Assembly: GCA_903870545.1 (NCBI GenBank)
Contig: CAIQDI010000004.1
Span: 27,848-91,847 of the forward strand
DNA: 64,000 bases
Source: an uncultured Pseudomonadota bacterium
Lineage (GTDB): Bacteria; Pseudomonadota; Gammaproteobacteria; Methylococcales; Methylomonadaceae
Reading direction: 5' to 3'
Shown here: piece after piece, positions 55,203-60,094 of the stretch
Position numbering within the stretch: the first letter of the stretch is position 1
How the letters are laid out: each line of letters begins with the position of its first letter
Notes under the pieces: generated by a model
The model's input: the letters and a program-made list of their open reading frames with translations, nothing else
The model's database searches: none
What the model was told of the DNA's origin: nothing
Made by a program: the position numbers and the translations under genes

Positions 55203-58200
55203 TCAATACATCAACCGAATCGCGTCTTTTCCTAGCCACAATTTTAATTGATGCAACAATTCATCGGTCGTTTCAACGCGCCACGCTTGACCTAATCGCA
55301 ACATCGCCCGCGCGTCATTTCCAAAATAATCAATCATCACCACCGTTTCGCCCCCTTTCACGGTTTGCAAAATTTCCGCGAGTTTTTCAAATGGCGAATT
55401 GCCGGTTTTAAAGGTGAGCTGCAACGTTTTTCGAGCTTGTTCAATCGGATAAATTCGATCTACGCTCAATAATGGCGTGTTTAAATACGCATCCATCGCT
55501 AAATTCCCTTCCACAATCAGCAATCGATCTTTGTAATCCGCTTTGAAAATGGTTTGAAACTCGTCATAAACTTCTCGATACGCGCTAATATCAAGCCGCG
55601 CCGTATTGTCGTCGAGAATGGCAAAGCCGCGTGAAATGCCTTGTTTGTTTTGGCGCGAACCAATATCAATCGCTAAACCGGCAATTCTTACCGGCATGGC
55701 ACGCCGACCGGGTACAATTTCATTGAGTAATTGCACGAGTTTTTTGGGCGCGAGTTGGCGTAATTCGTCTGCGTATTGGTCAATCGGATGTCCGGTTAAA
55801 AACAAACCCAACACATTTTTTTCTTCGGCAAAACGTTCTTTGTCCGACCACGCCTCAACGGTTGTCGCATAAGTGGGCGTGGCAGTTTCTTCTTCGTTTG
55901 CTTCGCCGCCACCTAAACCAAATAAATCGCATTGTCCCGCGAGTTTCATTTTGGTTTGATGTTCAGCGACTTTTAACGCCGTCGGTAATTCGGCTAAATG
56001 CGCGGCACGATTGGGGTCGAATTCATCTAACGCGCCTGCTTTGATAAGGGCTTCGGAGACACGTTTATTAAATTTGCGTAAATCCACGCGCTGACACAAA
56101 TCGTACAAACCTAAAAATAAACCGTTGGCTTTGCGTTCGTCAATCATGTCTAAAATCGCACCTTCGCCCGCACCTTTCAACGCGCCCAAACCGTAAATCA
56201 ATTCGCCGTTATCGTTTACGGTGAATTTGTAATCCGACAGGTTTATCGACGGCGGAATAATTTTGAGGTTCAACAAACGGCATTCGTCGATGTTAATGAC
56301 GACTTTTTCGGTATTGTCCATATCCGCTGAAAGTACCGCCGCCATAAATGCCGCTGGATAATGCGCTTTTAACCACGCAGTTTGATAAGCGACGAGCGCG
56401 TAAGCTGCGGAGTGGCTGCGGTTGAAACCATAACCACTGAACTTGTCAACTAAGTCAAAAATGTAATTAGCAATATCAGCATCAACATTATTCGCTACTG
56501 CACCTGTTACAAAAAACTCACGTTGATTTGCCATTTCCTTTGCATCCTTCTTGCCCATGCAATTATGTGCGACAAAATCATTGGCAATAAAGTTGTGCGT
56601 TTCAAGAATGGTTAAATCAAAAACACGCTCTTCGCCAATCAATTCAATCGAAACAATTTTGTCCCAAAAAACTTCTGATTCAGCGATGGCTTGTAATTTT
56701 GAATCATTGAAAACTTGAGCAAAGTTCGCTACTCGATGACGTGATAATTCACTGCGCGGATTTTTGAAATTTAATCCACTCGACATCGTTCCTTTTTTAA
56801 AATCGCTTGCATCATCGATTCCAGACCAAGTCATTCCGCTTGCGTATTTTGCATTAGCAATTAAATATGTCACGGCACTAGGCAATTGATGTTTCGATTG
56901 AGTTTTAAGTTTCGCCTCAATTAAGTTGTAACAAATTTTTGCTTTTTCACGCTTTGCCGCGCTCATGAACGGCACAATCAAATCATAAAATTTCAACATA
57001 TCTTCACGTCCTGTAATTTGAACGCGATAAGAAATATAAGGCTGATTTTTATACGTCGAGTTTTTTACATTAAACAATCCGACAATGCCAAATCGTAACA
57101 ACAAGTGTTGAATTTGCTCAATTAACTTGCGGGATGTTGACGTGTAATCCGAATGCCCAATTGAAATATCAAACGTGCCGTCAGTTGACCATAATGTGCC
57201 TAAAAATAAGACTAATTGTGCTGACGATAATTCATAAACCCACAACGGAATTTCTTTATCGCGAGAAAGTGCGCGTTTAAGTTTTTCGTCAATCCAAGCG
57301 TTAAATTCGACAAATGAAAAACGCGCATACATGACGGATTTTTTTCCTTCATGATGTTGATAAGAAACGGGGGGTTTTTTACCAAAAAGCTCAAAACAAC
57401 AATCATTAAAATCACTAATCAATAATTCGTCGCTGTTACAAAAATAATTCCCAACCCGTTTTTTTTGCGATAAATAACCATCGCCAATTAAATAAGCCGC
57501 AATTTTTATCTCTGCTTCGCCGATTATATTTTCATGCGAAATTGGCAAATTTTTTGTTAAACCAATACTGTCGCCAACATTGAAATCTTCTAGTTTTTGC
57601 CAACCTGAAATGGTGTAAAACAAATGGTCGGCAGTGGCGCGAATTTTACGATTCGTTTTCGTGGTAATTTCCCAAACGTCACGCACACCGTTGTCGAAAA
57701 TCGCAGAAATCGGTTTAGTAACAATTTTTTGTGTCGTTAAATCGAGCGAAAAAACATCACGTCCCAACCAATAATTTTGATTATCTGCAATAGTTTGAAG
57801 CGTAACGCATTGACCCGTGGCGACATCGACAATTTGTGTTGAACCACTTAAACAACGTCGTAAAATATCCGCGCCACCCAGCGTATAACCTGACAATTCT
57901 CGTGCGATTTGCATGACTTGTTCTTGATACAAAATCACGCCGTTGGTCGGTTCCAAAATTGGTTCAAGAATCGGATGCGCGTATTCAGCAGCTTTGCGTT
58001 TGTGTTTCACGTTGACGTAATCATCCACCATGCCCGATTCGAGCGGACCAGGTCGAAATAACGCCACCAACGCAATAATGTCGTTGAAACAATCGGGCAA
58101 TAATTTTTTGATTAACTCTTTCATGCCGCGCGATTCCAACTGAAAAACGGCGGTCGTCAGTCCTTTTTTCAACAAATCATACGACGCAAAATCATCACGC

Positions 58201-59978
58201 GGAATTTGGCTAATATCAACGGGCGGTAAGCCTTTTTTCGCATTTTGCGCGTCAATGGTTTGCAACGCCCAATCAATAATCGTCAACGTTCGCAACCCCA
58301 AAAAATCGAACTTCACCAGCCCGACCGATTCCACGTCACTTTTATCGAATTGCGTCACTAAATTATTGCCTTCGTGGTCGCAATAAAGTGGCGTGAAATC
58401 GGTTAATTTCGTCGGTGCGATTACCACGCCGCCCGCGTGTTTCCCCGCATTTCGCGCCGTTCCTTCCAAAATTAACGCCATATCAATCAACGTTTTAACA
58501 TCTTCTTCGTTGTTGTAGGCTTGCTGTAAATCGGGGCTGCCTTTCAACGCATCGGTCAACGTAATGCCCACTTCGGTCGGAATCAATTTTGCCAATCTAT
58601 CGACAAAACCATAACCCAAACTCAACACGCGCCCCACGTCACGCACCACCGATTTTGCGGTCATCGAACCGTAAGTGATAATCTGTGAAACCTGATCGCG
58701 TCCGTAATGATCAGCCACATAATCAATCACTTCGTCGCGCCGATCCATGCAGAAATCAATATCAAAATCGGGCATCGACACCCGTTCTGGATTCAAAAAC
58801 CGTTCAAACAACAAATCAAATTCAATCGGATCTAAATCGGTAATTTTCAAAACGTACGCCACCAACGAACCCGCGCCCGAACCCCGTCCAGGGCCAACGG
58901 GAATACCGTGATTTTTCGCCCACTGAATAAAATCCGCCACAATCATGAAATAACCCGAAAATCCCATTTGCGTAATCACATCGAGTTCAATTTTCAATCG
59001 ATTCCAATACGCTTGTTCATTTTCTTCTGGCGTGCCGTCGCCGGTAATCGGATGTTTTTGCAAACGTTCGCGCAAACCTTGTTCGGATTCGCTGACAATA
59101 AAATCGTTAATCGTCATCCCTTCCGGCACCGGAAAATCAGGCAAAAAGTTTTTGCCCAATTCCATTGTAAAACTGCACCGTTTCGCGATTTCAACGGTGT
59201 TTTCTAAGGCTTCTGGCAAATCGGCAAATAACGTCGCCATTTCTTCCGCCGTTCGCAGATATTGTTGGTCGGTGTAATCTTTGGCGCGACGCGCATCGTC
59301 GAGGACGCGACTTTGATTGATACACACCCGAACTTCGTGCGCGGCAAATTCATTTTGTGTCAAAAAACGCACGTCATTCGTCGCAACAATCGGTAAATTC
59401 AACATCAATGCGAGTTCGACCGCACCAGAAATATAAAATTCTTCGTTCGGTTTGCCAACGCGCTGCACTTCCAAATAAAAGCGATTCGGAAACAGGTCGC
59501 GCCAATAGGTCGCACAACGCAACGCTTCGTCTTTTTTGTCGGCAATTAAGGCTTTGCCAATATCGCCTTGCATCGCACCGGACAGCGCAATTAAATTGTC
59601 GTGATTTTGTTCAATCCATTCACGTTTGAGCATCGGCACGGATTCTTTCGACGCTTGCCCGAGTTGATACGCTTTCGACACCAATTCGGTCAGCGTGACA
59701 TAGCCTTTGTGATTTTGAGCCAGCAACGTCAAACGGTACGGATTATTGGGTTCGTCGGGATTCAAAATCAAAACATCCGCGCCCGCAATCGGTTTGATTC
59801 CTTGCGACGTGGCGGCTTTGTACGTTTTGACCAAACCGAACAAATTAACGTGATCGGTGATGGCAACGGCGGGCATCTTCAATTCGCCCAGCCGTTTCAT
59901 GAGTGGTTTAATTTTGACCAAACCATCGATTAACGAATATTCGGTGTGAACTCTAAGATGTATAAAATCGGGTTGCAT
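55203..59978 (-). CDS. dnaE: DNA polymerase III alpha subunit DnaE, interrupted by an intein
   Basis: From the ATG at 59978 the product begins MQPDFIHLRVHTEYSL (PHP domain). It contains the polymerase core, an OB fold and a C-terminal tail. It totals 1591 aa with the intein and 1160 aa without it. Confidence 0.97.
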   Translation of the reverse strand: MQPDFIHLRVHTEYSLIDGLVKIKPLMKRLGELKMPAVAITDHVNLFGLVKTYKAATSQGIKPIAGADVLILNPDEPNNPYRLTLLAQNHKGYVTLTELVSKAYQLGQASKESVPMLKREWIEQNHDNLIALSGAMQGDIGKALIADKKDEALRCATYWRDLFPNRFYLEVQRVGKPNEEFYISGAVELALMLNLPIVATNDVRFLTQNEFAAHEVRVCINQSRVLDDARRAKDYTDQQYLRTAEEMATLFADLPEALENTVEIAKRCSFTMELGKNFLPDFPVPEGMTINDFIVSESEQGLRERLQKHPITGDGTPEENEQAYWNRLKIELDVITQMGFSGYFMIVADFIQWAKNHGIPVGPGRGSGAGSLVAYVLKITDLDPIEFDLLFERFLNPERVSMPDFDIDFCMDRRDEVIDYVADHYGRDQVSQIITYGSMTAKSVVRDVGRVLSLGYGFVDRLAKLIPTEVGITLTDALKGSPDLQQAYNNEEDVKTLIDMALILEGTARNAGKHAGGVVIAPTKLTDFTPLYCDHEGNNLVTQFDKSDVESVGLVKFDFLGLRTLTIIDWALQTIDAQNAKKGLPPVDISQIPRDDFASYDLLKKGLTTAVFQLESRGMKELIKKLLPDCFNDIIALVALFRPGPLESGMVDDYVNVKHKRKAAEYAHPILEPILEPTNGVILYQEQVMQIARELSGYTLGGADILRRCLSGSTQIVDVATGQCVTLQTIADNQNYWLGRDVFSLDLTTQKIVTKPISAIFDNGVRDVWEITTKTNRKIRATADHLFYTISGWQKLEDFNVGDSIGLTKNLPISHENIIGEAEIKIAAYLIGDGYLSQKKRVGNYFCNSDELLISDFNDCCFELFGKKPPVSYQHHEGKKSVMYARFSFVEFNAWIDEKLKRALSRDKEIPLWVYELSSAQLVLFLGTLWSTDGTFDISIGHSDYTSTSRKLIEQIQHLLLRFGIVGLFNVKNSTYKNQPYISYRVQITGREDMLKFYDLIVPFMSAAKREKAKICYNLIEAKLKTQSKHQLPSAVTYLIANAKYASGMTWSGIDDASDFKKGTMSSGLNFKNPRSELSRHRVANFAQVFNDSKLQAIAESEVFWDKIVSIELIGEERVFDLTILETHNFIANDFVAHNCMGKKDAKEMANQREFFVTGAVANNVDADIANYIFDLVDKFSGYGFNRSHSAAYALVAYQTAWLKAHYPAAFMAAVLSADMDNTEKVVINIDECRLLNLKIIPPSINLSDYKFTVNDNGELIYGLGALKGAGEGAILDMIDERKANGLFLGLYDLCQRVDLRKFNKRVSEALIKAGALDEFDPNRAAHLAELPTALKVAEHQTKMKLAGQCDLFGLGGGEANEEETATPTYATTVEAWSDKERFAEEKNVLGLFLTGHPIDQYADELRQLAPKKLVQLLNEIVPGRRAMPVRIAGLAIDIGSRQNKQGISRGFAILDDNTARLDISAYREVYDEFQTIFKADYKDRLLIVEGNLAMDAYLNTPLLSVDRIYPIEQARKTLQLTFKTGNSPFEKLAEILQTVKGGETVVMIDYFGNDARAMLRLGQAWRVETTDELLHQLKLWLGKDAIRLMY
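56562..57854 (-). mobile_element. Intein (431 aa) with LAGLIDADG homing-endonuclease domain inside dnaE
   Basis: The junctions read ...GGADILRR / CLSGSTQIVDV ... (block B TADHLFYT) ... AAYLIGDGYL ... LGTLWSTDGTF ... VFDLTILETHNFIANDFVAHN / CMGKKDAKE. The intein starts with Cys1, ends with His-Asn, and is followed by a +1 Cys. Confidence 0.9.
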
Positions 59979-60094
59979 GGGCGTTGTGGGTGGAAGCGAA
60001 AAAAATAACAATCGAGCAGATTGCAAAAGGTCGGTAATAATAACTGAACGCGGCGGGCGATGTTACCGATTAAACAACCGCCAAAATCTAAAGG

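Follow-up and report, generated by a model that had tools for sequence, protein, structure and literature searches.

The window analysed here, a 64,000-nucleotide stretch of contig CAIQDI010000004.1, belongs to a metagenome-assembled Methylococcaceae bin (2.68 Mb, 98.3% complete) and carries dnaE, the gene for the alpha subunit of DNA polymerase III (Pol III), interrupted in frame by an intein. The gene lies on the minus strand, as do all of its features described below. The minus-strand open reading frame (ORF) at 55203-60026 is open throughout, its translation containing no stop, and the dnaE precursor gene occupies 55203..59978 within it (1591 codons plus stop; NCBIfam PRK05673 DnaE, 1448 bits). 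PHP, DNA_pol3_alpha, finger, HHH_6 and C-terminal domains were recognised by Pfam in the precursor. The N-extein (57855..59978) encodes 708 residues that end in ...GGADILRR and can be aligned to position 710 of the Escherichia coli Pol III alpha chain (2hnh); the C-extein (55206..56561) encodes 452 residues that open with CMGKKDAKE, the Cys+1 codon being the TGC at 56559-56561. The intein between them (56562..57854) comprises 431 residues, precursor residues 709-1139. The original prediction had held dnaE to be 431 codons too long and had expected excision to restore GGADILRR-CMGKKDAKE and a polymerase of 1160 residues. The in-frame insert is indeed exactly 431 codons, and the joined exteins read ...GGADILRR-CMGKKDAKE... 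over 708 + 452 = 1160 residues. The G+C content is 36.8% in the insert versus 46.2% in the exteins. Searches of the source genome with PF07733 and PF14890 returned one Pol III alpha gene and one intein, respectively. We are highly confident that the segment is a bifunctional intein of class 1, that it encloses a double-motif LAGLIDADG endonuclease and interrupts the fingers domain of the only dnaE, and that it belongs to the homing lineage of the LRR|C site (the bar marks the point of insertion).

Anatomy and boundaries of the insert

The insert has the class-1 arrangement, beginning with Cys1 and ending in His-Asn, with Cys+1 directly after it. Block A, CLSGSTQIV (57828..57854), contains the Cys1 codon at 57852-57854, and C1, L2, G4 and T6 do not vary in an alignment of 14 sequences, to which all the invariant positions of the individual blocks and motifs refer. 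Block B, TADH (57624..57635), supplies Thr74 and His77, both invariant, and is aligned to the same block in the Ssp DnaB intein (1mi8). Blocks F and G, VFDLTILETHNFIANDFVAHN (56562..56624), are matched by TIGR01443 and contain the block-F Asp413 and the terminal His430-Asn431. V411, F412, D413, H420, N421, F422, H430 and N431 are invariant here, and the C-terminus reads VFDLT...FVAHN up to the Cys+1 codon. The canonical splicing residues C1, T74, H77, D413, H430, N431 and C+1 are all present and invariant among homologues. The LAGLIDADG homing-endonuclease domain, with its linker and DNA-binding helices, extends over 56703..57539 (approximately residues 106-384). Motif 1, IAAYLIGDGY (57474..57503), contains the catalytic Asp125 (codon 57480-57482) within an invariant G124-D125-G126; motif 2, FLGTLWSTDGTF (57171..57206), contains the catalytic Asp225 (codon 57180-57182), with W222, S223, T224, D225 and G226 invariant. 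Both LAGLIDADG helices end in the catalytic acidic residue (IAAYLIGD125G and LGTLWSTD225G). The original prediction had named the opening Cys, TADH, two LAGLIDADG motifs and VAHN followed by Cys and had judged the splicing blocks intact; each of these elements is read in the sequence, and the judgement stands.

Family models and structure prediction give the same picture. Pfam Intein_splicing (PF14890, E = 1e-24) is split around LAGLIDADG_3 (PF14528, E = 1e-17), both scores being far better than chance would give, and in the whole precursor the insert interrupts the DnaE finger domain (PF17657) at profile position 144/166. NCBIfam recognises both intein ends (TIGR01445 for the N-terminus and TIGR01443 for the C-terminus), its best full-length match being the intein portion of the intein-containing DnaB model PRK07773. 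An AlphaFold2 model of the intein, built on a 14-sequence alignment, reached a mean predicted local distance difference test (pLDDT) score of 92.5 and a predicted template modelling (pTM) score of 0.90. The top Foldseek matches of this model in the PDB are endonuclease-bearing inteins, namely TliVMA (7qss; E = 1e-24, template modelling (TM) score 0.71), PI-PfuI (1dq3), PI-TkoII (2cw7), PhoVMA and PI-SceI; I-DmoI-type chimaeras and I-OnuI-type enzymes were also matched. The HINT fold of the model superposes on the splicing domains of the Ssp and Npu DnaB and Mtu RecA inteins with a root-mean-square deviation (rmsd) of 1.1-1.7 Å, and its endonuclease region consists of repeated alpha-beta-beta-alpha-beta-beta-alpha units in pseudo-dimeric order. 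The segment is therefore an intein of two domains, in which a double-motif LAGLIDADG endonuclease lies within the HINT splicing domain.

The boundaries were examined by searching 25 species genomes of the source genus with the joined 300-residue extein flank. Fifteen are colinear over the full flank, five (G000, G013, G014, G019 and G020) are interrupted at flank position 150, four (G003, G005, G006 and G024) are broken about 48 residues downstream of the LRR|C site, and the last (G023) is uninformative, a contig edge preceding the site. The 19 alleles without an insert at the LRR|C site, that is, the 15 intein-free ones and the four with the downstream break, read GGADILRR|AMGKK without interruption and with Ala after the junction; the intein-bearing alleles read RR|C...HN|CMGKK. 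At the DNA level, the intein-less alleles have ...CGN CGN | GCN ATG GG... (Arg-Arg | Ala-Met-Gly; also written ...CGNCGT|GCNATGGG...), and the intein-bearing alleles have 1293 nucleotides inserted at the same point, with TGC replacing GCN. Because the intein-less congeners read across the junction without a break, the boundaries are exact; in the congener alignment the edges coincide with Cys1 and HN|Cys+1, where the original prediction had put them. The site falls between the residues aligned to 710 and 711 of 2hnh. Spliced DnaE would have Cys at the position aligned to E. coli 711, directly after the conserved Arg-Arg of the fingers domain, where Ala is found in E. coli and in all intein-less congeners.

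The start of dnaE is likely the ATG at 59978, because homologues open with MQPxFIH (MQPDFIH in the window copy). The ORF as listed opens 16 codons further 5', at a TTG at 60026; the resulting extension LQSARLLFFSLPPTTP (59979-60026) is absent from homologues and probably remains untranslated. Ordinary housekeeping genes neighbour dnaE (a tsaC/sua5-like gene, a phosphopantetheinyl transferase gene, an ispB-like polyprenyl synthase gene, hflK and hflC). No mobile-element context is seen among these neighbours, as expected for an intein.

The LRR|C site and its known inteins

When the intein region was searched against a database, more than 1000 matches were obtained, the top ~85 being DnaE proteins. 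Among the matches, at least 85 DnaE proteins fit the junction pattern LRR|C...HN|C[MIL]GKK, and Cys+1 is universal in these 85. The named cyanobacterial hosts are Okeania, Trichodesmium, Dapis, Aerosakkonema, Argonema, Coleofasciculus, Planktothrix and Cyanosarcina; the purple sulfur bacterium Allochromatium vinosum and uncultured Gammaproteobacteria are further hosts. Most LRR|C copies are full length (431-436 residues), with 51-89% identity to the window intein over ~431 residues. The full-length inteins of Allochromatium vinosum, Okeania, Argonema and Coleofasciculus share with it the site, the length of 431-436 residues, both Asp residues and 60-89% identity, and sequence divergence alone sets them apart. 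Graded endonuclease deletions of one allele were observed in Planktothrix and Coleofasciculus (P0071-P0121), at 327, 320, 277, 249, 237, 234 and 230 residues. This series is the expected decay phase of the homing cycle and provides a natural progression from full-length to mini-intein.

The Trichodesmium DnaE-N protein (P0070, from a metagenome bin) contains three elements, in the order of a tandem-repeat intein at ETYGVL|C, an intein at LLRR|C and the N-half of a split intein at FAEY|C. By its position after the tandem-repeat intein, we take the second of the three to be Ter DnaE-2. The Ter DnaE inteins of Trichodesmium erythraeum are said to have been described by Liu and Yang in 2003, so that the intein family has reportedly been known since then. 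On this naming, the window intein is taken to be allelic to Ter DnaE-2. The insertion point is identical (...ADLLRR|CLSGST...HN|CMGKK), Cys1, TxxH, two LAGLIDADG motifs, HN and Cys+1 are shared, and identity to the P0070 copy is 51% over the whole intein. The two differ in host: the window copy is found in a methanotrophic gammaproteobacterium whose dnaE is contiguous, the other in a cyanobacterium with a split dnaE and two further inteins. They also differ in the endonuclease, as both Asp are intact in the window copy whereas the Trichodesmium copy has GEG/TSG at the motifs and is probably endonuclease-dead. Ter DnaE-2 is one of the natural inteins for which splicing has been demonstrated in model proteins in E. 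coli, a mini-version of it splicing to 10-30% (PMC3620165).

Inteins in Pol III alpha have been surveyed by Novikova et al. (2016), who counted 116 in nine phyla, Proteobacteria included, and described a hot spot in the fingers domain with insertion points a-d and g within 75 residues, 'a' being that of the split intein (PMC4760082). The LRR|C site falls inside this 75-residue hot spot. The insertion site and the intein lineage are therefore already well populated, and the window copy is another member, recognised by standard domain models. A literature search found no report of inteins in Methylococcaceae.

Other named systems are more distant. The cyanobacterial split DnaE intein (Ssp, Npu) resides in the same host protein and the same hot spot, but it is naturally split, lacks an endonuclease, occupies FAEY|CFNKSH 44 residues downstream and is only weakly similar in sequence to the window intein (E ~1e-3 to 1e-5). 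With its site upstream of FAEY|C and its host dnaE contiguous, the window intein does not belong to the split DnaE inteins, and the distinction between the two sites drawn in the original prediction is borne out. The nearest solved splicing domains are those of the Ssp, Npu and Mtu DnaB inteins (E = 3e-21, ~28% identity, rmsd 1.1-1.6 Å over ~100 aligned residues), the Ssp and Npu mini-inteins leading the search by sequence (E ~1e-21 to 1e-20); full-length DnaB inteins are ~30% identical overall to the window intein. DnaB inteins are paralogous and not alleles, because the host protein and the homing site differ. PI-SceI, PI-PfuI, PI-TkoII and TliVMA share the combination of HINT with a double-motif LAGLIDADG endonuclease (Foldseek E = 1e-24 to 1e-9, TM score up to 0.71), but have 12-18% identity, archaeal or yeast hosts and other target genes.

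Probable splicing and endonuclease activity

In the proposed mechanism, the 1591-residue precursor would be translated and the HINT domain would then excise itself. Cys1 would undergo the N-S acyl shift with the help of Thr74 and His77, Cys+1 would perform the transesterification, and Asn431 would cyclise with the help of His430, yielding a 1160-residue DnaE with Cys in place of the Ala of intein-less alleles. The freed intein would act as a site-specific endonuclease that cuts the intein-less allele (...ACG NCG T|GCN ATG GG...); repair off the intein-bearing copy would then bring in the element together with the TGC codon, completing homing. Confinement of the Cys+1 codon to intein-bearing alleles is consistent with such co-conversion.

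From its intact blocks and its position in the sole Pol III alpha gene, the intein is almost certainly splicing-competent. The argument for splicing is strong because the genome, 98.3% complete, has a single Pol III alpha gene, whose product can be made solely by splicing. The splicing reported for Ter DnaE-2, taken to be its allele, points the same way (PMC3620165). The insert could be conceived of as a dead remnant or an assembly chimaera that leaves dnaE a pseudogene, and the origin of the genome as a metagenome-assembled bin might speak for this, but we regard the idea as effectively refuted. The frame of 1591 codons contains no stop, four other species of the genus show the same arrangement in assemblies made independently, the source genome has no second Pol III alpha gene, the splicing residues are all intact and the ratio of nonsynonymous to synonymous substitution rates (dN/dS) is about 0.1.

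The LAGLIDADG endonuclease is probably active, judging from the retention of both Asp residues and from dN/dS. Of 65 full-length homologues, 61 keep both catalytic Asp. Comparison of four divergent congener copies by the Nei-Gojobori method gave a dN/dS of 0.09-0.17 for the endonuclease domain versus 0.04-0.16 for the splicing domain. These values place the endonuclease domain under purifying selection, which fits an endonuclease that is still being maintained but does not by itself prove cleavage activity. The patchy occurrence of the intein, in 5 of 25 congeners, is further indirect evidence for cleavage of the intein-less allele.

The two cysteines at the junctions also permit a regulatory interpretation, in which the intein is a conditional switch and a Cys1-Cys+1 disulfide or another stress-sensitive state delays maturation of the replicase when conditions at the lake oxycline are oxidising. 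Cys1 and Cys+1 are both there, Cys+1 supplants the native Ala, and mycobacterial DnaB reportedly provides a case in which the intein of a replication protein splices conditionally (PMC7360933). Cys+1 is, however, simply the nucleophile that the lineage requires, it is universal in the 85 matched homologues, and we consider a switch very unlikely.

Spread of the intein and possible competition in the genus

The intein of the window is 60-65% identical (median 61.7%) to cyanobacterial DnaE copies, while the first 400 extein residues are 37.7% identical. Horizontal transfer best explains this difference, because the intein is more conserved across phyla than the essential polymerase that carries it. 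In the intein tree, where the LRR|C inteins group together, the window copy is one of a clade of 14 inteins with hosts exclusively of proteobacterial type (Shimodaira-Hasegawa-like approximate likelihood ratio test (SH-aLRT) 90, just under the starring threshold), and the cyanobacterial copies are largely together, with few host-type switches. Transfers from phylum to phylum have therefore been rare, and spread has been mainly among related hosts. Within the source genus the LRR|C intein is patchy, occurring in 5 of 25 species. Between G000 and G014/G019, the synonymous divergence (dS) of the intein is 0.50-0.58 and that of the flanking dnaE 0.97-1.16, a difference of about twofold. The halved intein dS is weakly suggestive of exchange after speciation, the estimates being noisy and near saturation and the intein AT-rich.

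Several points weigh against an intein that still homes. Endonuclease activity cannot be read from sequence and appears to have been lost in several lineages of the LRR|C intein, as in the Trichodesmium copy with its altered motifs and in Planktothrix and Coleofasciculus with their mini versions of 230-327 residues. Purifying selection on the endonuclease domain could be explained by a structural need for splicing, not cleavage. One early gain with later losses would also suit an endonuclease that has stopped homing, and it is allowed by the 900-nucleotide extein tree of the genus, whose resolution is too poor for gains to be counted (the most favoured topology takes two gain/loss changes, and its starred branches permit one). 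These points lead to an alternative in which the intein splices, the endonuclease no longer homes, and the element is fixed, vertically inherited in part of the genus and kept only because an imprecise loss would destroy the essential polymerase. A single origin of the LRR intein in the genus, as the starred branches permit, and the decay or deletion of the endonuclease in relatives would both fit it. So would the failure to find, in metagenome contigs, any empty-site allele with the source species' own flanks, a weak negative. The two intact catalytic Asp speak against it, as do an endonuclease dN/dS as low as that of the splicing domain and the intein dS of about half that of dnaE, which, noisy and near saturation as it is, hints at transfer after speciation. 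We thus consider this alternative unlikely and favour a bifunctional intein of a homing lineage.

A second intein occupies the same region of dnaE in some congeners that lack the LRR|C intein. In G005 (L030/L010, contig C47) and G003 (L039/L011, contig C125), an insert with the junctions GYGFNK|C...IIVHN|SHSAAYA lies 48 residues downstream (E. coli 758|759). It is a different LAGLIDADG intein, of 438 residues and with Cys1 and Ser+1 (Pfam intein E = 1e-24). The interruptions in G006 (L031) and G024 (L032) are at the same GFNK|S place, the insert sequence having been read only for G003 and G005. None of the 25 congeners, the source genome included, carries both the LRR|C and the GFNK|S intein, although some other LRR|C hosts do have a second intein at GFNK|SHS (P0004 and the Allochromatium protein P0043). 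Two further proteins, P0010 (1735 residues) and P0036 (1784 residues), have an insert of 143-155 residues at GFNK|SHS that opens with Thr (TVDENT/TLGSDT), contains a block-B-like TLDHKW and ends in ...HNFLLASGLCCSN|S. No Pfam match was found for it at E <= 0.1, and from its motifs it looks like a non-canonical mini-intein without Cys1/Ser1 or the penultimate His. The two endonuclease-bearing inteins, at LRR|C and GFNK|S 48 residues apart, might compete in the genus, with the LRR|C intein still homing between species; we put this forward as a possibility of low probability.

For annotation, the product of dnaE should be described as the intein-containing precursor of a 1160-residue polymerase, and beyond this the finding has little significance. 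The window intein is an apparently intact splicing and endonuclease copy of a lineage whose characterised member, taken to be Ter DnaE-2, looks endonuclease-dead, and it is a reasonable source of a new LAGLIDADG specificity or of a Cys/Cys splicing module. The contrast between 62% identity to cyanobacterial copies for the intein and 38% for its host protein is a record of inteins having been exchanged by cyanobacteria and proteobacteria. Two alternative DnaE inteins with patchy occurrence in one freshwater methanotroph genus offer material for the study of the homing cycle. If the two inteins did compete and the LRR|C intein were still homing, the genus would be a natural system for the homing cycle and for interference between neighbouring inteins in lake populations; more speculatively still, the Cys1/Cys+1 pair would cause the replicase to mature in a redox-sensitive manner at the oxycline.

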